Source: an uncultured Verrucomicrobiota bacterium (lineage in GTDB: Bacteria > Verrucomicrobiota > Verrucomicrobiia > Limisphaerales > UBA8199). From it: a DNA stretch of 64,000 nucleotides. Under the pieces are notes generated by a model that worked only from the letters and a program-made list of their open reading frames with translations, was not told the DNA's origin and did not search any database. Positions 1-62,330 of the stretch are shown here, piece after piece (position 1 is the first letter of the stretch; each line of letters begins with the position of its first letter). The DNA is taken from the NCBI GenBank assembly GCA_942493075.1, contig OW818681.1, forward strand, positions 5,899,296-5,963,295. The letters are read 5' to 3'. The position numbers and the translations under genes were made by a program.

Positions 1-877
1 CACGATGAACTTCTTCCGCAAAGGTCCGCAAGTGGTTGTCTATTGCGCCCAGGACCAGGTCTATGCCGAGCGGATCTTTAAACAATTCAAGGAACAAACC
101 GGGATTCGCGTGCTGGCTGTTTACGACAGCGAAGCGGTGAAGACAGTGGGCCTGGCCAACAGGTTGCTGGCCGAGAAGGCGCAACCCCGAGCAGACTTGT
201 TCTGGGGGAACGAGGAGTTGCGCGCGCGGCAATTGGCGCAACGAGGAATTTTCCGTGAGACGAATGGATTGGCGGTTTTCGGCTATCGTTCCCGCCGGTT
301 GGTGGTAAATACCAACACCTTTGATTTTTCGACGGCTCCTAAGAGTTGGCGTGATCTGACAAACTCGGTCTGGCAGGGCAAACTCGCTTTCGGATATCCC
401 CAGTTCGGCACCACCTCAACGCACTTCCACGCGCTGCGACAACATTGGGGCGAGCCCGCTTGGAAGGCCTGGTGCCTCGCTTTGGCCGCTAACAAACCGC
501 GGCTTGTGGATGGAAATTCGGTTGTGGTGAAGATGGTGGCCAGCGGTGAAGCCGTAATTGGCATGACCGATTCGGACGACATAGCCGCTGCGCAACGGGA
601 AGGCGCGCCTGTGGCTGCGTTGCCCATCGCTGAGGATTCGTTGCTGATACCGAATGCAGCCGGGTTGATTGCAGGCGGGCCGAACCCGAACCCGGCGGAG
701 GTTCTGTTCGAGTATTTGCAGAAACCTGAGGTCGCCCGCGAACTGGTATCGATGAATGCCCTCGAAGGTGTGTCCCCTGCTGAGATCCAAACTTCGACAC
801 TGAAGCCGGATTGGGAAACGATGCTGCGCGATCTTGATGCCACTGTGAGAATCTTGAACGAGATTTTTCTCCGATGA
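1..877 (+). CDS. ABC transporter periplasmic substrate-binding protein, Fe(III)/FbpA-AfuA-like. Probably 5'-partial: no signal peptide after the first ATG at 5, and the frame is open to the window edge.
   Basis: ORF 5..877 shows the family-1 solute-binding fold typical of iron(III) SBPs (VVVYCAQDQVYAERIFKQFKEQTGIRV...). It overlaps the next gene by ATGA. Confidence 0.7.
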   Translation, partial: TMNFFRKGPQVVVYCAQDQVYAERIFKQFKEQTGIRVLAVYDSEAVKTVGLANRLLAEKAQPRADLFWGNEELRARQLAQRGIFRETNGLAVFGYRSRRLVVNTNTFDFSTAPKSWRDLTNSVWQGKLAFGYPQFGTTSTHFHALRQHWGEPAWKAWCLALAANKPRLVDGNSVVVKMVASGEAVIGMTDSDDIAAAQREGAPVAALPIAEDSLLIPNAAGLIAGGPNPNPAEVLFEYLQKPEVARELVSMNALEGVSPAEIQTSTLKPDWETMLRDLDATVRILNEIFLR

Positions 878-3291
878 ATTGGGCACTGTTGTTAAACAGC
901 CTGGGCGTCGCTCTCCTGGCCACCGCGGGTGCGGTGATTGCCGGATTCGCGGCAGCCCTCTTCGCGCTTGCATGCGGTCGGCGCATGCGCTTCGCACTCT
1001 GTGCTTGTGGGGTCCTGGTTCTGGTGCTGCCTCCGTTTCTTGTGGCAAACGCGTGGCTGCACTACTTTGGTTTGAACGGGGCATGGCGCGGCGTGCTGCC
1101 ATTCAATGTGCTGACTTTGCCCGGCACAGCGTGGGTGTTGATCCTGCTTCTCTGGCCGATCACTTTCCTGCTTGTTCTTGCCGGGTGGCGACAATTGCAC
1201 CCAGTCCACTTCGAGAGCGACCCTGCGGTGCGCGGTCGATACCTGCTCCAGGCATTGTTAATCCCGTTCGCGGGTCCTGCCCTGGGTTGGGCGACCGTTA
1301 TCACCCTTGTGCTGGCCCTGAATCAGTTCACGGTGCCGGCTCTGTTACAGACCAAGGTGCTACCCGCTGAGATGTGGGTGCGCTATAACACGGAACTGGA
1401 TGCTTTGGGCGCGCTACGCATGAGCCTGCCCTTAATCCTTGGTCCCCTTGTCTTGCTTTTCTGGGTGCGACAGAAACCCGTGCCCTGGAAACAAACCCGG
1501 GAAGAGTTAACTCCGGCAACCGTGCGCCGCCAGTTAGGTGCAGTTTGGATCGGATTGGCATTCGTGATCACGGTGCCAATGATTGCGCTCTCGCTCGGAC
1601 TGCCCCTGTTCCAGATTCTATCCGCGCCGCGCACATGGATAGAGCTGCCGATGACTCTGGCGGCGGCCAAGGTATCGCTCGCGCACTCATTCCTGTATGC
1701 ATTGGTCGCCGCTACATCGTGCACGTGTCTCAGCTTGCTCGTTTGGCATCGGATGGTGCGCGGGTTCGCGTGGCTTCTGTTTCTCATCCCTGGAATGCTG
1801 CTGGGGCTTGGGCTGATCCGTTTGCTCAACACCTCATGGACAGGGTTGCTTTTTCAAACACCGCTGCTTGTATTGATCGGGCTGACGTTACGTTACATCG
1901 CGCTTCCAGCCAGCGTGCTGGCCGCTCAGGCGCGGCGCATTGATCCGAGAATCCTTGATGATGCACGGCTCCTTGGATTAAGCCTGCCGCAGCGCATCCG
2001 GCACGTCTATGCGCCGTCGTTGGCAGGTCCTGCCCTCGTGGTTTGGTACTGCGTGTTTCTCCTGTGCTTGTGGGACGTGGAAACCGCTTTGCTCCTGATT
2101 CCGCCCGGAGGCGAAACAGCGGCCTTGCGTGTGTTCAACCTGCTCCATGCCGGTTATAGCGCCCAGGTGAATGCCCTGTGCCTGGCGTTGCTGGCACTGG
2201 GGCTCTTGCCGCTGCTTTTCGTTCTAGTCGCCACGGTGATCTCCGGTGGTAAGCGTCGCATGAGCCTGCTCCGCTGGCTGCCGTTGATCCTGGCCACCGG
2301 GATGGCGGGATTGATCAGCGGTTGCTCGAAACCCCTTTCCTCTCAGTCAGCGCCGTTGGAGAGCCGTTTCTTCACGGAGGCTTCGGTGATCGCCTCGCGC
2401 GGTGCCGGTCCAGGAGAAGTCAACAAACCGCGCTCGGTCACGGTGGGCACGGATGGGGGGCTGTACGTGGTGGATATGACCGGGCGTGTGCAAAAGTTTT
2501 CTAACACCGGATCGTTCCTGAAATCGTGGCAGATGGAAAAGACGGACTTGGGCCGACCGAAAGGCTTGGGTGTGGACCGTGAAGGCAACATCATGGTGAA
2601 CGAGCCCCATTATTCGAAGGTCAACCATTTCACCACGGACGGCGCGCTGACGGTCCGATGGGGCGTGCACGGGACCAATGATGGGCAACTGGCGTTTCCG
2701 CGGGCGGTGGCGGTGAACTCGCGCAACGAAATCTACCTGAGCGAGTATGGCCTGGTAGAGCGAGTTCAGCGGTTCAGTTCTCGCGGGGAGAAATGGTTGG
2801 GGACCTTTGGTACCGCCGGATCAGCTCCGGGTCAGTTCAACCGTCCCGAAGGTCTGTGCATTGACCGGCAGGACCGTGTGTATGTGGCTGACTCGTGTAA
2901 TCATCGAATCCAGGTGTTCGACATGGACGGCAGGTTTCTGCATGCCTATGGCTCGGCAGGCACCGGGTTGGGGCAACTCAGTTATCCCTACGATATTTGT
3001 GTTGATGCGCAGGGGTTCCAGTTCGTCTGCGAGTTCGGCAACAGCCGCATTCAGGTGTTCGATCCGGAAGGCAAGCCGCTCGAAATCATAGGCGGACCGG
3101 GCCTGGCTCCTGGCCGATTTAACAATCCCTGGGGAGTAGCGCTCGATGGCTCAGGCAATCTGTATGTGGCGGATGCGTTGAACCATCGGGTGCAGAAACT
3201 GATCCGGCGTATCGGTGTGAGCCAGGCCCCTTCACAGCCAGGGCTTGCAGTTGAGCAGATCGCCTCACGCCGTGTGGGAGCCCATTCATGA
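874..3291 (+). CDS. Two-domain FbpB-like ABC permease (~460 aa, about 12 TM) fused in frame to a lipobox-bearing NHL-repeat beta-propeller (~340 aa).
   Basis: The N-terminal half is hydrophobic and permease-like. An internal Met at 2260 starts MSLLRWLPLILATGMAGLISGCS, a classic lipoprotein signal with lipobox ISGC. This is followed by NHL repeats (YVVDMTGRVQKF, VYVADSCNHRIQVFD, LYVADALNHRVQKL). No stop codon separates the two parts. Confidence 0.7.
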   Translation: MNWALLLNSLGVALLATAGAVIAGFAAALFALACGRRMRFALCACGVLVLVLPPFLVANAWLHYFGLNGAWRGVLPFNVLTLPGTAWVLILLLWPITFLLVLAGWRQLHPVHFESDPAVRGRYLLQALLIPFAGPALGWATVITLVLALNQFTVPALLQTKVLPAEMWVRYNTELDALGALRMSLPLILGPLVLLFWVRQKPVPWKQTREELTPATVRRQLGAVWIGLAFVITVPMIALSLGLPLFQILSAPRTWIELPMTLAAAKVSLAHSFLYALVAATSCTCLSLLVWHRMVRGFAWLLFLIPGMLLGLGLIRLLNTSWTGLLFQTPLLVLIGLTLRYIALPASVLAAQARRIDPRILDDARLLGLSLPQRIRHVYAPSLAGPALVVWYCVFLLCLWDVETALLLIPPGGETAALRVFNLLHAGYSAQVNALCLALLALGLLPLLFVLVATVISGGKRRMSLLRWLPLILATGMAGLISGCSKPLSSQSAPLESRFFTEASVIASRGAGPGEVNKPRSVTVGTDGGLYVVDMTGRVQKFSNTGSFLKSWQMEKTDLGRPKGLGVDREGNIMVNEPHYSKVNHFTTDGALTVRWGVHGTNDGQLAFPRAVAVNSRNEIYLSEYGLVERVQRFSSRGEKWLGTFGTAGSAPGQFNRPEGLCIDRQDRVYVADSCNHRIQVFDMDGRFLHAYGSAGTGLGQLSYPYDICVDAQGFQFVCEFGNSRIQVFDPEGKPLEIIGGPGLAPGRFNNPWGVALDGSGNLYVADALNHRVQKLIRRIGVSQAPSQPGLAVEQIASRRVGAHS

Positions 3292-6161
3292 GGTTTCAAT
3301 TCACCCATGCGCTCTATTTGCTGCTGCTGCTTCCCGCAGCCGCCTGGGTGATTTGGCTATGGGCCTGGACGGATGCCCAGCTCACACCTGTTCGACGATG
3401 GCTTTCTCTGGGTCTGCGCTGCATGGTTCTGCTTGCCTTGATCCTGGCGATCGCTGGCGCCCAGGCATTGCTCCCGGTCGATGGCATGAATGTTTTCTAC
3501 CTGCTGGATCGGTCCGATAGTGTTCCTGGCTCCGGCCAGGAAGCGGCTCGTGAATACGTGAATCGCAGTGCCCACACGAAGCGATCAACCGATCGCGCCG
3601 GAGCGGTTGTGTTCGGAAGCGAAGCCAGCATTGAGTTCCTGCCAAACACCATCGTGGATTTACCAAAGGTGCAGGCCGTCGTGGGCAGTGAGCGCACGGA
3701 TTTGGCTGAAGCCATTCGACTTGGCACCGCGGCACTGCCGGAAGCTGGGCAGAAACGGTTGGTGGTGCTTTCGGATGGAAATCAAAACTCGGGAGACGCT
3801 TTGGAAGCGGTGGCGGCGGCGCAGCGACTGGGTGCGACCGTGGATGTTGTTCCATTAGGCTCGGCTCGCCGTGGAGACGTCTCACTGCAACGCCTTGAAA
3901 TGCCGGCTCGATTGAAACGCGGCCAGCCTTTTGAATTGAAGATCGTGACTCAGGCTGAGGAAGCGCGCGAGGCCACCCTTCGGTTGTGGCGCAATGACCA
4001 GCTTCTCGGGGAACAGAAGATGCAGCTTAACCCTGGCAAAAACTTGCACTCACTTTCACAGCGTCTGGAAGAGCCCGGGTTCTACAATTACGAGGTTTTG
4101 CTGGAGATCCCGGGCGATCCGATCCCGCAGAACAATCGCGCTGCGGGTTTCGCTGTTGTAGCAGGAGAACCCAAGCTTCTAATCGTCTCGGATGACCCGG
4201 CGGCTGATAGGTCGCTGGCTTCCGCGCTCCAGAACGCCCAACTCCAGAGCAGCATGGTGGGGCTGAACGGATTCCCCACGAGCCTTGCAGAACTGCAGAC
4301 CTACGACACGGTTTTCATCAGCAACCTTTCGGCCGGTGATCTGGGAATGACCCGCCAGAGGTTGCTTGAGAGTGCGGTGCGCGATTTTGGGGTGGGGTTG
4401 GTGTGCGTGGGAGGCCCACAAACCTACGCGGCAGGGGGGTATCGCGGCACGCCATTAGAATCGGCCCTGCCGTTGAGCATGGAGTTGGATAGCAAGAAAG
4501 TGCTCCCGCCCGGTGCCGTGGTGTTGATCATGCACGGCATGGAGTTCATGAACGGCAACCAGGTGGCTCGCGATTGCGCGCAAGGCGTGCTGTCGGCGCT
4601 GGGCCCCGGAGATGAGATGGGCGTGCTGCTTTGGGATGGCAACGAGCGATGGCTCTTTCCTCTGGCCAAGGTCGGTGACCGCAAAGAGATGGCGCGACAG
4701 ATTGCGGGAATGAACCAGGGCGATCTGGCCAGTTTTCAAGGCGTCCTGCAAATGGCCCACGAAGCGTTGGCCAAATCCCGGGCCAGCCTCAAGCATATCA
4801 TTATCTTTAGCGATGGCGATCCGCAGGCCCCTAAACCCGAGCTGATGCAGGCGATTGTTAAGGACCGCATTACGGTAAGCAGTATCTTGATTGCCGGGCA
4901 TGTTGGACCCGAGACCATGATTCTCATGGCTGACGCCGGGCGCGGCCGCTTTTACAACATCACCTCCCCTGACGAGTTGCCTCAGGTGTTCATCAAAGAA
5001 ACCGCTGTTATTCTGAAGAGCGCCATTTACGAAGAACCATTTGTGCCTCAGGTGCGCTCGATGACCGAACCCGTGCGCGGCATTCAACCAGCCGAGTATC
5101 CTCAACTGCTCGGTTACGTGGCCACCACTCCGAAGCCGCGAGCCGAAACACCGCTCTGGACCCCGGCGAGCGATCCCTTGCTGGCGCATTGGCAATATGG
5201 TTTGGGCCGAGCGGTCGCTTTCACGTCAGACGCCCAGGCGCGCTGGGGCAAACACTGGACCAGTTGGGGCAAGTACCGACAATTCTGGACTCAACTTGCG
5301 CAATGGAGTCTGCGCCGGGCGGAGAGCGCCGACTTCGATGCGCGCATGAGCATTGAGAATGGTGAAGGATTGGTGAGCCTCGATGCGGTTGATGCCCAGG
5401 GCAATTACCGGAATTTTCTAAACCTGCAAGCTTCGCTAGTTGATCCCAAAGGGGATCGCCAAACGTTGCGCCTGGAGCAGAACGGCCCGGGCCATTACGA
5501 GGCGCGGTTCAAAACCCGGGTTAGCGGTGTCTATATGGCAAACGTTTTGGAACTGGCTGAGGGTGGCGTGCGAGCCGCGCAAGTGCTCGGCGCTACCGTG
5601 AGCTATTCGCCTGAGTTCAACACCGCCAGCCCTGATCTCGCGCTGCTGGGCCGCATCGCAGAGCGCGGAGGCGGAAAGCTCCTCGACTTGAACAATCCGA
5701 TCGCTGGTCCATTTTCTCATGACAGGATCAGAACCTTTCAGCCGCGCGATTTGTGGGAATGGTTGCTCCAGTTTGCTGTGCTCCTCTTCGTAGTTGATAT
5801 CGCGATGCGCCGCGTGATGATTGATCGCGAGGAATGGGCCGTCGGCTGGCGCCGTGTGCGCGCATGGATTCCGTTCTTGAAGCCCGCGAAGCAGGTCACT
5901 TCAAGCGACCCTTCGTTGTCGAGCCTGCTTGCGCGGCGGCATCAAGTGCGATCGCAGCAGCCCGTAGCTCCGCCGTCCAGTGCGCCGGAACATCTCTTTC
6001 AACCCCGGGAAGAACCCTCCGCGCCCGCGCCGGACCCAGCCTCTGCGTCATCAGTGCCGCCTGCACAACAGGCTCAGGCACCAAGTGCAACTGCCGCTCA
6101 GGGCAGCACCGCCAGCCGGTTGTTGGAAGCCAAGCGCCGCGCCCAAAAGAAGCAGGAATAG
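3288..6161 (+). CDS. BatA-like membrane-anchored VWA-domain protein. Architecture is VWA, a ThuA/class-I glutamine-amidotransferase-like domain, a second VWA-like region, a C-terminal TM segment and a Pro/Ala-rich tail.
   Basis: BatA-type N-terminus (MRFQFTHALYLLLLLPAAAW), a MIDAS motif DRSDS, and a second cluster IIIFSDGDP. The start overlaps the upstream stop by ATGA. Confidence 0.7.
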   Translation: MRFQFTHALYLLLLLPAAAWVIWLWAWTDAQLTPVRRWLSLGLRCMVLLALILAIAGAQALLPVDGMNVFYLLDRSDSVPGSGQEAAREYVNRSAHTKRSTDRAGAVVFGSEASIEFLPNTIVDLPKVQAVVGSERTDLAEAIRLGTAALPEAGQKRLVVLSDGNQNSGDALEAVAAAQRLGATVDVVPLGSARRGDVSLQRLEMPARLKRGQPFELKIVTQAEEAREATLRLWRNDQLLGEQKMQLNPGKNLHSLSQRLEEPGFYNYEVLLEIPGDPIPQNNRAAGFAVVAGEPKLLIVSDDPAADRSLASALQNAQLQSSMVGLNGFPTSLAELQTYDTVFISNLSAGDLGMTRQRLLESAVRDFGVGLVCVGGPQTYAAGGYRGTPLESALPLSMELDSKKVLPPGAVVLIMHGMEFMNGNQVARDCAQGVLSALGPGDEMGVLLWDGNERWLFPLAKVGDRKEMARQIAGMNQGDLASFQGVLQMAHEALAKSRASLKHIIIFSDGDPQAPKPELMQAIVKDRITVSSILIAGHVGPETMILMADAGRGRFYNITSPDELPQVFIKETAVILKSAIYEEPFVPQVRSMTEPVRGIQPAEYPQLLGYVATTPKPRAETPLWTPASDPLLAHWQYGLGRAVAFTSDAQARWGKHWTSWGKYRQFWTQLAQWSLRRAESADFDARMSIENGEGLVSLDAVDAQGNYRNFLNLQASLVDPKGDRQTLRLEQNGPGHYEARFKTRVSGVYMANVLELAEGGVRAAQVLGATVSYSPEFNTASPDLALLGRIAERGGGKLLDLNNPIAGPFSHDRIRTFQPRDLWEWLLQFAVLLFVVDIAMRRVMIDREEWAVGWRRVRAWIPFLKPAKQVTSSDPSLSSLLARRHQVRSQQPVAPPSSAPEHLFQPREEPSAPAPDPASASSVPPAQQAQAPSATAAQGSTASRLLEAKRRAQKKQE

Positions 6162-6197: not shown

Positions 6198-6968
6198 CTA
6201 CATGCCCATGATCTGGTACCCGCAATCGGCGTAGATCACCTGACCCGTAATTGCTCCAGCGCCGTCGCTGGCCAGGAACAGGCCCGTTGCGCCAAGTTCC
6301 TCCGGCAGCAGGTTGCGCTTCAGCGGAGCGTGCTCTTCATAGTGTCTGATCATCTCCAGGAAACCGGAGATGCCACGAGCGGCCAGGGTGTTGACCGGGC
6401 CGGCACTGATGCAATTAACCCGGATCTTTTGCGGACCGAGGTCATACGCCAGGTAACGGGTGCAGGCTTCCAGGGAAGCTTTGGCCACACCCATGACATT
6501 ATAATGGGGGACTACCTTTTCGGCGCCGTAATAGCTCATTGCCACGATGCTGCCGCCATCTTTCATGAGCGGTGCGGCTTCGCGGGCAAGGCCCAGAAGC
6601 GAGTAAGCGCTGACATCATGGGCAATCCGGTAAGCCTCGCGGCTGGTGTTGATGAATCGGCCTTCCAGGGCCTCGCGCGGGGCAAACGCTACAGAATGCA
6701 GGAGCAGGTCGAGTTTGCCGAACTTCTCGCCAACTGCGGCGAAAACCCGGGTGATATCTTCGTCGCGGGTGACATCGCAGGGCAAAATCAGCGTGTCCTG
6801 GCCGAAAGAACCGGCGAGTTCTTCGACATTATCGCGGATGCGATCACCTTGATAGGTGAAAGCCAGCTTGGCGCCTGCCTTGTGCCAGGCCTGGGCGATG
6901 GTCCACGCGATAGACCTCTTGTTCGCCACGCCAAAAACCACACCGTATTTACCAGCCAATAAAGACAT
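6198..6968 (-). CDS. fabI: Enoyl-[acyl-carrier-protein] reductase (NADH), FabI
   Basis: Full-length SDR-family FabI signature (GKYGVVFGVANKRSIAW...YYGAEKVVPHYNVMGVAKASLE...). Confidence 0.9.
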   Translation of the reverse strand: MSLLAGKYGVVFGVANKRSIAWTIAQAWHKAGAKLAFTYQGDRIRDNVEELAGSFGQDTLILPCDVTRDEDITRVFAAVGEKFGKLDLLLHSVAFAPREALEGRFINTSREAYRIAHDVSAYSLLGLAREAAPLMKDGGSIVAMSYYGAEKVVPHYNVMGVAKASLEACTRYLAYDLGPQKIRVNCISAGPVNTLAARGISGFLEMIRHYEEHAPLKRNLLPEELGATGLFLASDGAGAITGQVIYADCGYQIMGM

Positions 6969-9817: not shown

Positions 9818-9945
9818 CCGTACTGTTGGTAACTGCGCGTTCCATTTGATGTCATTCCTGGTGGTTCCGGTTTGCGCCACAAAGGCGCAAACCGGAACCA
9901 CCAGGAACTTTTCTGTTTTAAGCCTAGAGGTTACCAACAGTACGG
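9818..9945. repeat. MITE-like palindromic element, copy 1: terminal inverted repeats CCGTACTGTTGGTAAC/GTTACCAACAGTACGG around a long internal hairpin.
   Basis: Inverted termini are visible directly. The internal stem is CCTGGTGGTTCCGGTTTGCGCC-acaaa-GGCGCAAACCGGAACCACCAGG. Confidence 0.6.
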
Positions 9946-21170: not shown

Positions 21171-21287
21171 ATCAAAGTAGAGGCGGGCGTCTCTTCTTGG
21201 TCTCCTGGTTGCCTCTATTCTATGTCCTTTATCCGGATCTATCCGCAGATGGCGCAGATGGCCGCCGATGAAGGCGGAGGCTTCGGA

Positions 21288-21343
21288 ATGTAGCGCGGTC
21301 GTCTCGACTGCGAGTACGGGCGGCGTCTCGCCGCCCCTTTTCC
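21288..21343 (+). terminator. Conserved box plus hairpin terminator element, copy A.
   Basis: ATGTAGCGCGGTCGTCTCGACTGCGAGT box forms CGCGGTCG-UCU-CGACUGCG. It is followed by GGGCGGCG-TCTC-GCCGCCC then CTTTT, downstream of the H-X9-DG gene. Confidence 0.45.
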
Positions 21344-39647: not shown

Positions 39648-39705
39648 ATGTAGCGCAGTCGTCTCGACTGCGAGTTCGCGCACCGTCTCGGTGCGCTTTC
39701 GTTCC
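39648..39705 (+). terminator. Conserved box plus hairpin terminator element, copy B, downstream of lolD.
   Basis: ATGTAGCGCAGTCGTCTCGACTGCGAGT, then GCGCACCG-TCTC-GGTGCGC and TTTCGTT. Confidence 0.45.
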
Positions 39706-39746: not shown

Positions 39747-39872
39747 TCCGTACTGTTGGTAATCACGATCCGAAGGAGAGATATTCCCTGGTTTTTCAGG
39801 TTTGCGTTCCAGGGCGCAAACCTGAAAAACCAGGGTGGAGCAAGAGGTGCGCGCGCGTTACCAACAGTACAG
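39747..39872. repeat. MITE-like palindromic element, copy 2.
   Basis: TIRs CCGTACTGTTGGTAAT/GTTACCAACAGTAC. Internal hairpin CCCTGGTTTTTCAGGTTTGCG-N8-CGCAAACCTGAAAAACCAGGG. Confidence 0.6.
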
Positions 39873-40207
39873 AAAGCGATCGGTAGATGTGGCCGAGAGC
39901 AGACGCTCGCCTCCAGGATCGCCGCTTGCGGTCTTGGACTGCTGTAGTCCTACAGCTTTTTCGAAGGGCGTTTCTGCTACGAACGAAGAGATTCTCCTTA
40001 GGTCGAGCCCGGTGCCCTCGTGCGAAAAGCGGCGCTTCACGCCGCACTCCACAACGCGTAGCGCATTCGAAGCTTTGAGAACACAAGACCCGGGAGCAGC
40101 GTTCTGAAGCACGACTCGATGGAACGCATAATTCAAGCCGGTGCCACACATCGCTTGCTGCCATTCATTCGCACCATGCCAGCCGAACTGGAATCCGTAC
40201 TGTGGGT

Positions 40208-40400
40208 AAAGCCTCCAATTCCTAAAGGAATCGCATCGTGACCACAGACCAGCAAACACGTAAGTCATTGGTTATCAAAGGAGGCGTTTGCTGTTCTGTG
40301 GAAAAAGCCTCCAATTCCTAAAGGAATCGCATCGTGACCACAGACCAGCAAACACGTAAGTCATTGGTTATCAAAGGAGGCGTTTGCTGTTCTGTGGAAA
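40208..40400. repeat. Two perfect tandem copies of a 96-bp unit, each a long imperfect hairpin. They are preceded by a solo TIR-like CCGTACTGTGGGTAAA at 40195-40210.
   Basis: The unit AAAGCCTCCAATTCCTAAAGGAATCGCATCGTGACCACAGACCAGCAAACACG...CGTTTGCTGTTCTGTGGAAA repeats exactly. Confidence 0.7.
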
Positions 40401-40683
40401 GCTTCGCAACTCTTTTAATGTCCTCCCATATGGTGCAGATTCCTTGCTGCCGACAGGAATGAGCGCGATCGCTAGATGGGGCAGTTACAGGGATGCAGAG
40501 CCGAGACGGCTCTGCCACTTTGCAGGACCTCGAACCCGCTGGGTTCGTAGCTGATCTTATGAACGAGATCGGGAGGCATCTGCGACCCCTCGCGGGGTCG
40601 TGTCCCCTCTTCCTTCCTACTGGAGGCAATTTTTTCAACAGACCTGTTCGACATCGGTCAAGGCTGACATAGTATAGATATCA

Positions 40684-47536: not shown

Positions 47537-47661
47537 TCGTACTGTTGGTGGCACAAAGTCCTATAAAATGAACCCCTGGTTTCTCAGGTTTGCGCCAGAG
47601 TGCGCAAACCTGGAAAACCAGGGAATATTTCTTCTTCGGATCGTGATTACCAACAGTACGG
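47537..47661. repeat. MITE-like palindromic element, copy 3.
   Basis: TIRs CGTACTGTTGGTGGC/ATTACCAACAGTACGG. Internal hairpin CCCTGGTTTCTCAGGTTTGCGC-N6-GCGCAAACCTGGAAAACCAGGG. Confidence 0.6.
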
Positions 47662-47772: not shown

Positions 47773-47829
47773 GAACGAAAGCGCACCGGGACGGTGCGCG
47801 TACTCGCAGTCGAGACGACCGCGCTACAT
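47773..47829 (-). repeat. Conserved box plus hairpin terminator element, copy C, inverted.
   Basis: Reverse complement reads ATGTAGCGCGGTCGTCTCGACTGCGAGTACGCGCACCGTCCCGGTGCGCTTTCGTTC. Confidence 0.45.
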
Positions 47830-48065
47830 CACGGACGCACCGCAAGGTGCCGTCCCGTGCATTCCGAAGGAATGCCAGCTATTAGCCAGGGGTTGCGCGA
47901 GGAACGAGCGCCACCCCTGGTAGCGTGTCAGAGGGGACACGACCCCGCGAGGGGTCGCAGATGCCTCGACCGGTCTTGAGCCAGGGACTGTCACAAGCGG
48001 TCGTAGTGACAACGAGCTGATAGCAGGACATTCTCTCCGCGGGCCTCGGGCGATGACGCCCTACC

Positions 48066-58011: not shown

Positions 58012-60056
58012 GCTTGTCGAGGTAGGGACGCGGGTTACCCGCGCCCCCCTCACAGATCCCGGCGGGCAGTTTTCCTGCACCGGGCTCTTCAGATCAACTC
58101 GCTCTCGCATTCGCCATTGGTTGTTTCCATGTCCGGGAGAAGTGTGCCAGACGCTGGCAGTAACTCAGTTCCAACTGGCAAGGCATGCAGCCGTTCTTTT
58201 CCACAATGCGCGGGGGCGGCACTTGGAAACGCTCCAGCAGCCGATTGACCGCTGGCCATCTCAGGCTCTTTCGCTGACTCCGCCGGTTGAGCCATTTGTA
58301 CAGTGCCCGGCAGGTCTCATCATAGAGGAGTTTCATACGGCGAGAGTTGCCGATGATTCCATAGTAATTCCACGTCCCTTGCAGCTTTGCCTTCAATGTT
58401 TTCATCAATAGGCGCAGCTTCTGGTGACGCTGTTCTTTGATCCAGTCTTTCATCCTCTGCATGGCCGCCTGATGCTTCTTGGTGGCCGTGCGTCGTTTAA
58501 CCCTTGGTTTGCCTTTCCGGTCCGCTTCCCAGTAAAACTCGAACCCTAAAAAGTCAAACCTCCCATTGTGTGGCCCGCCATTGCGGCCAAAACGTATCGT
58601 CTTGGTTTTGTCGGGTGCCACCTCCAGCCCAAACTGAGCCAGTCGTTCTTTCAGTGCCTTTTCGAAGGCTTCGGCTTCATGCCGATACTCAAAGCTCGCC
58701 ACAAAGTCATCCGCATAGCGGACCATTCGACAGCGCCCTTGTTGCTTGGGTTTGACCACGCGTTCAAACCATAGATCCAGCACATAGTGCAGGTAGATAT
58801 TTGCCAGCACAGGCGAAACTACTCCGCCTTGGGGTGTTCCAGTCTGAGGATGTATCACCTTCCCATCCTCTTCCAGTATCCCTGCCCGCAGCCATTTGCG
58901 GATCAGGTTTACAAACGCTCCATCAGCGATTCTTTCCTCCAACATCCGCTCCAACCAGTCCCATTGGATATTGTCGAAAAATCCTTTGATGTCTGCTTCC
59001 ACTACGAAGTTGTGTCCGCCAAACTGCAACTCGTCCGTCAGGGCTTTGATCGCCGCGTGGGCGCTGATCCCTGGCCGATACCCATAGCTGCACGGCAGAA
59101 AGTTCTCTTCATAGATTGCCAGCAGGATTTGCGTCGCCGCCACTTGCAGCAGCTTATCCTCCAGCACCGGTATTCCTAAGGGACGGAATTTTCCGTTCCC
59201 CTTCGGAATGTACTTCCTCCGCACCAGTCGCGCCCGGTAGGCTTTGCGCCGGAGTCGATCCACCAGATCCGCCAGGTTCGCCTCCAGGTTTCTCTCATAT
59301 TCCTGGTACGTGACCTTGTCCACGCCACTGGCTGCGTCCTTCCGCAAGCGGTAGAAACACAGGCGCAAGACGTCCTGATTGATCATCCGATACAGCCCTC
59401 CGAACCGGTAGTGCTTTTGTGTGCATGCCTTCTCAGCTATAGCCCGCAGGGAGGTTTGCCAGTCTTTCTCCGTGGTTCTTACGGGACCGGTTTCCTGTGC
59501 AGGCTGCGTTGCTCTGTGGGACCCTTCCTGAACTTCGGGGCTTGCGCCTTGCCGTCCAATACTATGATCCCATCCGACTCCCGGATCGTCCGAAGGCGCT
59601 CCTTGTCGTTGCGTCCTCGTTCCTGCTTGGCCCTCGCAGTTAGTGCGGCAGGGACCCTCCGGGCCTCCTTCGTTCCGTGCGTCTCCTTCAGTGCCCGCCA
59701 CGCTCTTAGACCCCGGCAAGCCCGCCGCGACCTCACCTGTAGCGGTCACTTCGGTTTTGGGTTCGGGTAACGTAACTCCATCCCCACTTGCATTTTCGTT
59801 TTTCGAGGCTGAATTGCTTAAGCGGGATGCGGGTCCCGCTTGCGGCTTGCACTTTACCGCAGGTACGCTTCCCAACGGGCGTTCCGGCCGGTAAAACCAT
59901 AAGTCCACCGGTTCTCTTCCCGCCAGGCAACCTTCGGCTTTTGGATGTTGGTTAGACTCTTCCATTCTTTGTTTTCACTCAGAACTCCGATTGTCTGACA
60001 ACCGGATCAGAGGGACTTTCACCCTCGGATTACGCACAGCTTCACGAAGCGCTACT
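58012..60056 (-). mobile_element. Group II intron (IIC-like, ~2.04 kb), copy 1. Boundaries are approximate (±20 nt).
   Basis: Domain V on the minus strand at 58054-58087 reads GAGCCCGGUGCAGG-AAAA-CUGCCCGCCGGGAUCU. A domain VI-like stem follows. The intron encodes an RT/maturase and has an identical tandem copy. Confidence 0.75.
58094..59965 (-). CDS. Group II intron reverse transcriptase/maturase (no endonuclease domain). The ORF maximum is shown. The true start is probably near 59386-59500, because the N-terminal 190 aa are low-complexity read-through of intron RNA domains.
   Basis: RT motifs PKGNGKFRPLGIPVLEDKLLQ, FVVEADIKGFFDNI, VRYADDFV (the YADD motif), then maturase domain X. Confidence 0.85.
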   Translation of the reverse strand: MEESNQHPKAEGCLAGREPVDLWFYRPERPLGSVPAVKCKPQAGPASRLSNSASKNENASGDGVTLPEPKTEVTATGEVAAGLPGSKSVAGTEGDARNEGGPEGPCRTNCEGQAGTRTQRQGAPSDDPGVGWDHSIGRQGASPEVQEGSHRATQPAQETGPVRTTEKDWQTSLRAIAEKACTQKHYRFGGLYRMINQDVLRLCFYRLRKDAASGVDKVTYQEYERNLEANLADLVDRLRRKAYRARLVRRKYIPKGNGKFRPLGIPVLEDKLLQVAATQILLAIYEENFLPCSYGYRPGISAHAAIKALTDELQFGGHNFVVEADIKGFFDNIQWDWLERMLEERIADGAFVNLIRKWLRAGILEEDGKVIHPQTGTPQGGVVSPVLANIYLHYVLDLWFERVVKPKQQGRCRMVRYADDFVASFEYRHEAEAFEKALKERLAQFGLEVAPDKTKTIRFGRNGGPHNGRFDFLGFEFYWEADRKGKPRVKRRTATKKHQAAMQRMKDWIKEQRHQKLRLLMKTLKAKLQGTWNYYGIIGNSRRMKLLYDETCRALYKWLNRRSQRKSLRWPAVNRLLERFQVPPPRIVEKNGCMPCQLELSYCQRLAHFSRTWKQPMANARAS

Positions 60057-60109
60057 ACGCATCACGCGTACTAGCGCCCTGCCCCTCCGCTATCCCACTC
60101 CCGCACCAT

Positions 60110-62152
60110 GTTGTCGAGGTAGGGACGCGGGTTACCCGCGCCCCCCTCACAGATCCCGGCGGGCAGTTTTCCTGCACCGGGCTCTTCAGATCAACTCGCT
60201 CTCGCATTCGCCATTGGTTGTTTCCATGTCCGGGAGAAGTGTGCCAGACGCTGGCAGTAACTCAGTTCCAACTGGCAAGGCATGCAGCCGTTCTTTTCCA
60301 CAATGCGCGGGGGCGGCACTTGGAAACGCTCCAGCAGCCGATTGACCGCTGGCCATCTCAGGCTCTTTCGCTGACTCCGCCGGTTGAGCCATTTGTACAG
60401 TGCCCGGCAGGTCTCATCATAGAGGAGTTTCATACGGCGAGAGTTGCCGATGATTCCATAGTAATTCCACGTCCCTTGCAGCTTTGCCTTCAATGTTTTC
60501 ATCAATAGGCGCAGCTTCTGGTGACGCTGTTCTTTGATCCAGTCTTTCATCCTCTGCATGGCCGCCTGATGCTTCTTGGTGGCCGTGCGTCGTTTAACCC
60601 TTGGTTTGCCTTTCCGGTCCGCTTCCCAGTAAAACTCGAACCCTAAAAAGTCAAACCTCCCATTGTGTGGCCCGCCATTGCGGCCAAAACGTATCGTCTT
60701 GGTTTTGTCGGGTGCCACCTCCAGCCCAAACTGAGCCAGTCGTTCTTTCAGTGCCTTTTCGAAGGCTTCGGCTTCATGCCGATACTCAAAGCTCGCCACA
60801 AAGTCATCCGCATAGCGGACCATTCGACAGCGCCCTTGTTGCTTGGGTTTGACCACGCGTTCAAACCATAGATCCAGCACATAGTGCAGGTAGATATTTG
60901 CCAGCACAGGCGAAACTACTCCGCCTTGGGGTGTTCCAGTCTGAGGATGTATCACCTTCCCATCCTCTTCCAGTATCCCTGCCCGCAGCCATTTGCGGAT
61001 CAGGTTTACAAACGCTCCATCAGCGATTCTTTCCTCCAACATCCGCTCCAACCAGTCCCATTGGATATTGTCGAAAAATCCTTTGATGTCTGCTTCCACT
61101 ACGAAGTTGTGTCCGCCAAACTGCAACTCGTCCGTCAGGGCTTTGATCGCCGCGTGGGCGCTGATCCCTGGCCGATACCCATAGCTGCACGGCAGAAAGT
61201 TCTCTTCATAGATTGCCAGCAGGATTTGCGTCGCCGCCACTTGCAGCAGCTTATCCTCCAGCACCGGTATTCCTAAGGGACGGAATTTTCCGTTCCCCTT
61301 CGGAATGTACTTCCTCCGCACCAGTCGCGCCCGGTAGGCTTTGCGCCGGAGTCGATCCACCAGATCCGCCAGGTTCGCCTCCAGGTTTCTCTCATATTCC
61401 TGGTACGTGACCTTGTCCACGCCACTGGCTGCGTCCTTCCGCAAGCGGTAGAAACACAGGCGCAAGACGTCCTGATTGATCATCCGATACAGCCCTCCGA
61501 ACCGGTAGTGCTTTTGTGTGCATGCCTTCTCAGCTATAGCCCGCAGGGAGGTTTGCCAGTCTTTCTCCGTGGTTCTTACGGGACCGGTTTCCTGTGCAGG
61601 CTGCGTTGCTCTGTGGGACCCTTCCTGAACTTCGGGGCTTGCGCCTTGCCGTCCAATACTATGATCCCATCCGACTCCCGGATCGTCCGAAGGCGCTCCT
61701 TGTCGTTGCGTCCTCGTTCCTGCTTGGCCCTCGCAGTTAGTGCGGCAGGGACCCTCCGGGCCTCCTTCGTTCCGTGCGTCTCCTTCAGTGCCCGCCACGC
61801 TCTTAGACCCCGGCAAGCCCGCCGCGACCTCACCTGTAGCGGTCACTTCGGTTTTGGGTTCGGGTAACGTAACTCCATCCCCACTTGCATTTTCGTTTTT
61901 CGAGGCTGAATTGCTTAAGCGGGATGCGGGTCCCGCTTGCGGCTTGCACTTTACCGCAGGTACGCTTCCCAACGGGCGTTCCGGCCGGTAAAACCATAAG
62001 TCCACCGGTTCTCTTCCCGCCAGGCAACCTTCGGCTTTTGGATGTTGGTTAGACTCTTCCATTCTTTGTTTTCACTCAGAACTCCGATTGTCTGACAACC
62101 GGATCAGAGGGACTTTCACCCTCGGATTACGCACAGCTTCACGAAGCGCTAC
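60110..62152 (-). mobile_element. Group II intron, copy 2. Identical to copy 1 and separated from it by a ~53-bp spacer.
   Basis: The ~2.04-kb sequence is identical, including the DV/DVI region and the ORF. Confidence 0.75.
60191..62062 (-). CDS. Group II intron reverse transcriptase/maturase, copy 2 (100% identical protein).
   Basis: The ORF translation is identical to 58094..59965. Confidence 0.85.
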   Translation of the reverse strand: MEESNQHPKAEGCLAGREPVDLWFYRPERPLGSVPAVKCKPQAGPASRLSNSASKNENASGDGVTLPEPKTEVTATGEVAAGLPGSKSVAGTEGDARNEGGPEGPCRTNCEGQAGTRTQRQGAPSDDPGVGWDHSIGRQGASPEVQEGSHRATQPAQETGPVRTTEKDWQTSLRAIAEKACTQKHYRFGGLYRMINQDVLRLCFYRLRKDAASGVDKVTYQEYERNLEANLADLVDRLRRKAYRARLVRRKYIPKGNGKFRPLGIPVLEDKLLQVAATQILLAIYEENFLPCSYGYRPGISAHAAIKALTDELQFGGHNFVVEADIKGFFDNIQWDWLERMLEERIADGAFVNLIRKWLRAGILEEDGKVIHPQTGTPQGGVVSPVLANIYLHYVLDLWFERVVKPKQQGRCRMVRYADDFVASFEYRHEAEAFEKALKERLAQFGLEVAPDKTKTIRFGRNGGPHNGRFDFLGFEFYWEADRKGKPRVKRRTATKKHQAAMQRMKDWIKEQRHQKLRLLMKTLKAKLQGTWNYYGIIGNSRRMKLLYDETCRALYKWLNRRSQRKSLRWPAVNRLLERFQVPPPRIVEKNGCMPCQLELSYCQRLAHFSRTWKQPMANARAS

Positions 62153-62330
62153 CACGCTTTACGTTTCACCCCCACTCCGGTGCTTTTCCGATGCCGTCTT
62201 TTCATTTGTTCTGATTTTCCTGACGGTTTTTGTTGCCAGCAACTAATGAGTTGGACAAAATCATGTCGTCAAATGAAATCCGTCCCCGATCAACAGAACC
62301 GTAAGGGCGCCGGCAGGCTTCGCCCTTTGA

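Follow-up and report, generated by a model that had tools for sequence, protein, structure and literature searches.

Three short units in the 64-kb window (the whole stretch of DNA that was analysed) are very likely solo copies of a GTAG-tagged REP that belongs to a REPIN family, and this family was probably spread by a RAYT transposase. A REP-type element had been mentioned as one option in the initial annotation of this DNA, and it is borne out by the GTAG foot, the short palindrome, the dispersed extragenic copies, relatives that are mostly inverted doublets and, in a related genome, a RAYT gene flanked by the hairpin. The main reading given there, a terminator with a conserved binding hairpin or an sRNA, was not supported, since copy 1 was not flagged by a terminator scan and most relatives carry an inverted arm in place of a T run. 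To our knowledge, REPs are well studied in Gammaproteobacteria and hardly in Verrucomicrobiota.

Anatomy of the three window copies

The 28-nt box ATGTAGCGCRGTCGTCTCGACTGCGAGT has exactly three matches in the window, at 21288 (+), 39648 (+) and 47829..47802 (-), with none expected by chance (100 shuffles). All three copies contain a common unit of 55-57 nt, composed of AT-GTAG, hairpin 1, AGT(A/T)C, hairpin 2 and a short T-rich tail (Table 1), so that the three two-hairpin copies originally described are all present. Hairpin 1 reads CGC(R)GTCG-TCT-CGACTGCG, with an 8-bp stem and a 3-nt TCT loop. Its A/G variation among the window copies exchanges an A-U for a G.U pair, and pairing is kept, as had been proposed. 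Hairpin 2 has a GC-rich 8-bp stem closed by CG / TC(T/C) / CG. It was found as GGGCGGCG-TCT-CGCCGCCC in copy 1 and as GCGCACCG-TC(T/C)-CGGTGCGC in copies 2 and 3, the two forms differing at three pairs with both sides changed each time. Folded as single strands, copy 1 has both hairpins in its minimum-energy structure (z = -4.0) and copy 2 has both in its centroid structure; in the minimum-energy structure of copy 3 only hairpin 2 is formed, and an alternative pairing replaces hairpin 1. Hairpins with a GTCYC loop and at least six pairs number 8 in the window versus 0.7 in shuffles, and the three units account for six of these eight.

GTAG REPs are defined by a 5' GTAG directly before a short GC-rich palindrome (PMC3733652, PMC2817692). 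In all three window copies hairpin 1 is such a stem-loop, and the GTAG, which conforms to the GT[AG]G foot, abuts its stem. The copies are dispersed, with three intergenic ones in the 64-kb window; in other genomes, a single MAG can contain dozens of loci. The unit has no terminal inverted repeats, and an alignment of the three copies revealed no flanking direct repeats, as a MITE would have. The same alignment bears on whether the copies are simply leftovers of a local segmental duplication, without any family. Copies 2 and 3 are 95% identical across 57 nt, and each precedes a common 111-nt repeat; however, the sequences immediately upstream of GTAG are unrelated among the three copies, copy 1 has a different hairpin 2, and the hundreds of related units in other genomes refute this origin, which has virtually no chance of being correct.

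Table 1. Positions of the repeats and associated features in the window and in related loci.
Feature	Source	Position	Strand	Details
REP copy 1 (singlet)	window	21288..21343	+	AT 21288-21289; GTAG foot 21290-21293; hairpin 1 21294-21312; spacer AGTAC 21313-21317; hairpin 2 21318-21336; tail CTTTTCC 21337-21343
REP copy 1, covariance-model match	window	21287-21340	+	model R1, 73.9 bits
REP copy 2 (singlet)	window	39648..39704	+	GTAG 39650-39653; hairpin 1 39654-39672; spacer AGTTC 39673-39677; hairpin 2 39678-39696; tail TTTCGTTC 39697-39704; R1 74.3 bits
REP copy 3 (singlet)	window	47773..47829	-	GTAG 47827-47824; hairpin 1 47823-47805; spacer AGTAC 47804-47800; hairpin 2 47799-47781; tail TTTCGTTC 47780-47773; R1 71.6 bits
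Single hairpin, sister-type REP, GTGG foot	window	40496..40519	-	GTGG-CAGAGCC-GTCTC-GGCTCTG; R1 partial match, 16 bits, E = 0.0066
Terminator-like hairpin after tadA	window	48101-48077	-	10 pairs, tail TTGGTTTTTG
~125-nt repeat	window	9819-9944, 39749-39871, 47538-47660; partial 15598, 21384, 40196		14-mer: 11 matches vs 2 expected
38-nt perfect repeat	window	40573-40610; 47930-47967	+; -	GAGGCATCTGCGACCCCTCGCGGGGTCGTGTCCCCTCT
96-nt unit, tandem duplicate	window	40197-40388		97% identity
96-nt unit	L117	6831-6941		
Tandem group II introns	window	58014-62207	-	2097-nt unit; ORFs 58094-59965 and 60191-62062
Leucyl-tRNA synthetase ORF with REP-RAYT-REP cassette	L071 (WGMQ01000005.1)	723-3971	-	1082 aa
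RAYT-flanking hairpin	L104, Desulfatirhabdium			GTAGCCAGAGCGTCTCGCTCTGG
RAYT-flanking hairpin	L105-L107			GTGGCACGGGCGTCCCGCCCGTG
RAYT-flanking hairpin	L108			GTGGCATGGGCATCTTGCCCATG
RAYT-flanking hairpin	L122			GTGGCCGGAGCTTCCAGCTCCGG
Tandem array with hairpin 1	L055 (CAZVAQ010000085.1)	6637-6785		60-nt period
Repeat upstream of ruvB	L114	9485-9555, 9744-9795		...GCGGCGCTTCGCAAGCTTCGCGC...GCACTCCACGACGCGTAGCGCTTTC...
Same repeat	L111	~60-130		adjoins hairpin-1 REP

Family members, covariation and doublet architecture

The pattern GTAGCGCNNNCGTCTCGNNNGCGAG, which left three stem pairs of hairpin 1 and the whole of hairpin 2 free, was run against 185,579 species, each represented by one genome, and gave at least 103 loci, mostly in Verrucomicrobiota MAGs. 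Other MAG labels among the matches listed were Acidobacteriota, Binatia, Hydrogenophilales, Haliangiales, Planctomycetota and Sumerlaeota; such labels may be unreliable, and both the taxonomic breadth and the copy numbers are lower bounds. Many copies are found per MAG, with at least ~30 loci in a single groundwater Verrucomicrobia MAG; none of the loci listed comes from the source genome of the window. Pattern matches in Microvirga, Rhizobiales, Paraburkholderia, Actinomycetes and Chloroflexota were rejected as chance occurrences in GC-rich DNA, having non-complementary NNN positions and no hairpin 2. Three loci were obtained from viral contigs, without any sign that phages carry the element.

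The positions that the pattern left free show the structure of the family. Among the matches listed, the NNN/NNN positions pair at 3/3 in 76 of 94 distinct matches (81%, against ~5% by chance when G.T is allowed). A hairpin 2 with at least six of eight pairs was found at a fixed offset in 36/94 (38%) versus 0-10/94 in shifted controls, always among the matches listed, where its loop is GTCCC or GTCTC. The unit is 54 nt long in 29 of the 31 distinct two-hairpin units among these matches, and the two loops, which share a CGTCYCG core, lie a fixed 24 nt apart. The family arm is therefore composed of the GTAG foot, hairpin 1 (CGC-NNN-CG / TCT / CG-NNN-GCG), AGTTC and hairpin 2 (a variable stem of 6-8 bp, with CG / TCY / CG). 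A covariance model (R1), as had been suggested for checking the element, gave 177 matches in 100 loci among the loci listed but no further full copy in the window, where it detected only a related single hairpin at 40519-40496 (-). This hairpin shares its repeat-rich spacer with copy 2 and has the form of a GTGG-tagged hairpin that adjoins a RAYT gene in locus L105. Among the aligned R1 matches that fall outside the search pattern (n=54, mostly inverted partners), the GTAGCGC...GCGAGTT frame is kept, with the loops GTCTC, GTCCC and GTCCTC.

In a gap-free alignment of 29 units, 95% of the cells are paired, versus 77.5% after shuffling and 29-50% when the partners are slid, and 77 cells carry double changes versus 26 in shuffles. 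These double changes affect six of the eight hairpin 2 pairs, 97.8% of the hairpin 1 cells are paired, and RNAalifold predicted both hairpins unaided; two choices bear on these values, since the search pattern dictated the outer pairs of hairpin 1 and the 29 units were selected for the presence of hairpin 2. Similarly, GTAG is present in all 29 units by virtue of the pattern, but it is also kept in most of the inverted partners that the pattern did not select. As these partners show the same consensus, much of the search bias is removed. The covariation demonstrates a structural constraint, with many of the double changes being inherited sub-types and not independent events. Hairpin 2 stems recur as few types (GGCGGC, GGCACC, CCGAGC and GGGC), and the difference between window copy 1 and copies 2 and 3 is the family-wide GGCGGC/GGCACC alternative. 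The compensatory changes first noted in hairpin 2 are thus real at all three pairs, but since they reuse the two commonest stems of the family, they reflect family-wide sub-types and not local co-evolution.

Wobble pairs indicate which strand folds. In hairpin 1 of 98 distinct two-hairpin matches among those listed, we counted 38 G.T versus 4 A.C, and this excess identifies the GTAG strand as the one under structural constraint. Folding of this strand fits either single-stranded DNA read by a Y1 enzyme or a sense RNA. G.T pairs were likewise noted for GTAG REPs by Di Nocera et al. (PMC3733652).

The family has REPIN architecture. Among the matches listed, 97 of the 119 two-hairpin matches have an inverted partner at most 250 nt away, GTAG points outward in 51/52 pairs, and most spacers measure -1 to 30 nt. 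The typical full element is GTAG-H1-H2-spacer-H2'-H1'-CTAC, so that what follows hairpin 2 in most of the members listed is a spacer and an inverted arm and not a T run. The arms of one doublet usually differ in stem sequence, which indicates that each hairpin is conserved individually and not through one long inverted repeat. No inverted arm was found within 250 nt of any window copy; all three are singlets of this REPIN family, the minority form (22 of the 119 two-hairpin matches listed), and this counts against the REP/REPIN assignment.

Association with RAYT genes and comparison with known systems

Inverted hairpins on either side of a gene are the published RAYT/REP signature (PMC2817692, PMC6006769), and we were able to find it at one locus with the exact hairpin. 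In the MAG bacterium RI_26 (L071), inverted GTAGCGCGGGCGTCTCGCCCGCGAG hairpins 600 nt apart enclose the ORF of a Y1 transposase, which carries HUH (NHVH) and Tyr (YVWRNP) motifs and matches Pfam Y1_Tnp (E = 5e-10). Against the NCBIfam model 'REP-associated tyrosine transposase' it scored 75.5 bits, just below the cut-off of 80, versus 27 bits for IS200. The REPs of this genome carry hairpin 1 only, and as it holds the sole RAYT directly flanked by the exact hairpin, the two-hairpin arm is left without a direct RAYT link. The REP-RAYT-REP cassette of L071 lies in frame and stop-free inside a leucyl-tRNA synthetase ORF (Table 1), in which the REPs translate as ...GSAGVSPAS... and ...PRGRDARATL.... 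Either leuS has tolerated the in-frame insertion of an entire REPtron, or the arrangement is an assembly artefact.

The L071 ORF has thousands of homologues, many of which are called 'REP element-mobilizing transposase RayT' by JGI. GT[AG]G-footed hairpins flank the gene at all four homologue loci that were read (L104, L105-L107, L108 and L122; sequences in Table 1), and the GTCYC loop recurs in the flanking hairpins of L104 and L105. Among these four, the inverted arrangement across the gene is clear for L122 only. Searches of the window with phmmer (using an E. coli YafM sequence as a probe) and with jackhmmer (using the L071 ORF) gave no RAYT gene in the 64 kb, which also counts against the REP assignment. 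Among the 103 loci listed, the same programs recovered L071 and, besides it, just one weak ORF, in L020, that is Pfam-negative.

GTAG REPs are known from PVC bacteria, namely Opitutus terrae (GTAG-17 to -20) and Rhodopirellula baltica (GTAG-20/21) (Di Nocera et al. 2013, PMC3733652). Like the present family, these have a GT[AG]G foot directly before a GC-rich stem of 6-9 bp, loops of 2-5 nt and many G.T pairs; both singlets and inverted dimers occur, the GTAG of the dimers facing outward, and the copies lie mostly downstream of ORFs, with some inside (PMC3733652). Intragenic REPs of O. terrae encode peptides such as HGRHARAT, which is near the RGRDARAT encoded by the L071 hairpin (PMC3733652). 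They are, however, described as single hairpins, with head-to-tail pairs being rare (PMC3733652), whereas the arm described here continues, at a constant distance, into a second hairpin that is untagged. Searches of the text and supplements of PMC3733652 and of further literature did not turn up the consensus GTAGCGC-NNN-CGTCTCG-NNN-GCGAG, and a literature search with the exact element sequence gave two irrelevant primer-type matches only. The family is a further member of the GTAG REP/REPIN group, with a fixed-geometry two-hairpin arm that is not described in PMC3733652.

The REPIN-RAYT systems of Pseudomonas and Enterobacteria (Bertels and Rainey 2011, PMC3116915; Nunvar et al. 2010, PMC2817692; E. 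coli TnpA-REP, PMC3479197) share with this family the inverted REP doublet, the 5' GTAG recognition foot and, as in L071, a single Y1 HUH transposase gene between inverted REPs. They differ in three respects. The arm described here has two hairpins, and the full doublet therefore four; the associated RAYT, of ~200-250 aa, has the NHVH and YVWRNP motifs; and the known families are lineage-specific, while MAGs assigned to several phyla carry nearly the same arm. Near-identical arms across phyla count against a REP, as REPs are normally lineage-specific, although some of the MAG labels may be wrong.

In the mechanism that we favour, the GTAG strand would fold as single-stranded DNA, and a RAYT of the HUH-Y1 family would recognise foot and hairpin, cut and rejoin, and so spread and maintain the repeats in intergenic DNA; we infer such mobilisation for the source genome as well. 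Copies would lie mostly after genes because insertions are tolerated there. In transcripts, the GC-rich hairpins may hinder 3' exonucleases or act as weak terminators, as a side effect and not as the reason for their conservation. It is doubtful, though conceivable, that the repeats form a distinct four-hairpin REPIN class (54-nt arm, near-invariant GTAGCGC...GCGAGTT frame, CGTCYCG loops 24 nt apart) that moved horizontally between phyla with one RAYT clade, reaching Verrucomicrobiota and several other soil and groundwater phyla, and whose singlets were co-opted in the source lineage as 3'-end RNA hairpins, in the role of stabiliser or weak terminator. On this doubtful reading, the transposase could also use the untagged hairpin 2, which follows GTTC or GTAC, as an additional recognition module.

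The unit could also be immobile and independent of RAYT, being either a protein-binding chromosomal site or the remnant end of an IS200/IS605-type transposon, but we consider this most unlikely. Binding of a nucleoid-associated protein or of gyrase has been proposed for E. coli BIMEs, and a CGTCYCG core in both loops at a fixed spacing would suit a dimeric binder; the strand-specific G.T wobbles argue instead for folding of one strand and not for a duplex binding site. As for a transposon end, IS200/IS605 Y1 transposases use subterminal hairpins with a 4-nt guide as well (PMC6006769), but no tnpB or IS200-type gene adjoins any window copy and the transposase flanked by hairpins in L071 scores far higher as RAYT than as IS200.

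For the RAYT-spread REPIN family that we prefer, the fixed two-hairpin geometry, the clear covariation and the apparent presence in several phyla offer a convenient case for the study of how RAYTs read their substrates. The family also suits the question of whether REPIN-RAYT systems cross phylum boundaries. In genome annotation, masking as REP/REPIN repeats is advisable for such sequences, which should not be listed as candidate regulatory RNAs.

Gene context, terminator-like features and junction DNA

The window belongs to a Verrucomicrobiota genome, and the named neighbours of its RuvB, at 86-88% identity, come from Verrucomicrobiota. The gene neighbours of the three copies are those initially reported. 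A prepilin-type N-methyl/DUF1559-like gene stops 118 nt before copy 1, which in turn begins 373 nt ahead of an ABC ATPase gene, and copy 2 begins 20 nt past the stop (39628) of a LolD-like ABC ATPase gene. Copy 3, on the minus strand, is located between tadA (stop 48216) and ruvB (start 47250), 387 nt past the former, and ends 522 nt before the latter. All three are sense-oriented and lie between co-directional genes.

This arrangement would agree with a functional 3' UTR RNA element kept by selection on the transcript, in which hairpin 2 and its U-rich tail form an intrinsic terminator and hairpin 1 a binding site or a roadblock for 3' exonucleases, or in which the unit defines a 3'-derived small RNA. 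Hairpin 2 does resemble Rho-independent terminators in its GC-rich 8-bp stem, 3-nt loop, T-rich stretch and position after a stop codon. With the tail UUUCGUUC, hairpin 2 of copies 2 and 3 was flagged by a loose terminator consensus scan (5 T in 8), the G.U pairs occur on the sense strand only, and in other bacteria REPs have been reported to stabilise mRNAs and to terminate transcription (PMC3733652). In addition, a metagenome scan for the GGT/ACT sub-type of the window gave five loci with one close match (L112), a metagenomic relative in which the unit is as in the window and the T run is better (CCTTTGTTTTTC).

Several observations speak against this RNA element, which we hold to be unlikely. 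The usual form of the family is an inverted doublet without a T run, so that a transcript from either side reads one arm antisense. The U-tract noted at the outset is weak, being short and interrupted, with just 3-4 uninterrupted residues in the window copies, and in copy 1 the tail CUUUUCC was not flagged at all. Unlike in ordinary Rho-independent terminators, the GTAG foot and the preceding hairpin are conserved across genomes, while most members have no T run. Copy 3 lies ~250 nt beyond a stronger terminator-like hairpin (Table 1) that is found ~115 nt past the tadA stop, which indicates that ordinary terminators occur in the source genome independently of the REP. In L117, a near-identical strain (96-98% DNA identity), copy 3 is kept, its 57 nt differing by 3 substitutions, which is close to the rate in the intergenic DNA around it; one of them makes the T tail weaker (GCTTTCG to GCCTTCG) and another disrupts the outer pair of hairpin 2, the tail thus not being conserved in this strain. 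Nor does any Rfam family match the element in the kind of search that had been suggested as a check: there was no match at gathering score in the window, and permissive E-value scans around copies 1 and 2 were negative on the element, giving only spurious miRNA-hairpin matches on a long hairpin nearby.

Orientation in other genomes is suggestive but not significant. Among the matches listed, the intergenic singlets comprise 11 sense and 4 antisense to the upstream gene (n=15, one-sided binomial p ~0.06), rough counts that depend on a crude gene caller. Seven other singlets in this set lie inside called ORFs, in both orientations, according to the same kind of crude ORF heuristic, not checked by eye; they too argue against a 3' UTR element. 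The sense bias of the window copies and of 11/15 intergenic singlets leaves room for a role at the RNA level. Judging from position, orientation and a weak T run, it is possible that hairpin 2 with its T tail acts as a terminator or mRNA stabiliser, in addition to the REP origin that we prefer.

The window copies lie in variable junction DNA, not in conserved leaders or trailers, and are dispensable. Synteny between the window and L117 ends at ~40593 (16692 in L117), inside the repeat-rich spacer of copy 2 and upstream of a Na+/H+ exchanger gene. Beyond this breakpoint the window has the lolCE/lolD-like genes, whereas in L117 a serB-like gene lies 11 nt away, and we interpret the breakpoint as a strain-level rearrangement at repeats. 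L114 (96% RuvB identity) has no R1 match in 21 kb around ruvB, the 130 nt directly upstream of ruvB being conserved. L118, whose ABC protein is 82% identical, likewise has no REP; ~210 nt upstream of the ABC gene are conserved and the upstream neighbour is different. Because the neighbouring genes also differ in L114 and L118, absence of the REP there shows dispensability and not precise insertion. The coincidence of the copy-bearing, repeat-rich spacers with synteny breaks between close strains fits repeats that mark or promote rearrangement.

Other repeats were observed in the window. A second family, of ~125 nt, consists of a long near-perfect hairpin bounded by 14-nt terminal inverted repeats (CGTACTGTTGGTAA ... 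TTACCAACAGTACG). It occurs 40-115 nt downstream of each REP singlet, in miniature form (GTACTGTTTG-N10-CCCAACAGCAC) after copy 1, and may be either a MITE targeting REPs or a co-travelling module. A 38-nt perfect repeat with an internal hairpin is located in the spacers of REP copies 2 and 3, and together with the REP and the ~125-nt element it forms inverted repeat blocks flanking 40.7-47.25 kb, a segment with ruvB and the Na+/H+ exchanger gene. A 96-nt unit is present in the window as a tandem duplicate and is found elsewhere in L117. The window also contains two identical tandem group II introns, each with a 623-aa ORF and with Rfam matches to domain 1-4 and domain 5/6.

Two further repeats were noted outside the window. 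In a Sumerlaeota MAG (L055), a tandem array carries hairpin 1 (GTAGCGCATGCGTCTCGCCTGCGAG) in each unit; its three matches 60 nt apart were considered as a CRISPR, but the 'spacers' are identical and the array is a tandem repeat. Finally, a repeat with GCGGCGCTTCGCAAGCTTCGCGC and GCACTCCACGACGCGTAGCGCTTTC occurs twice upstream of ruvB in L114, and it also adjoins a hairpin-1 REP in the metagenome contig L111 (Table 1).
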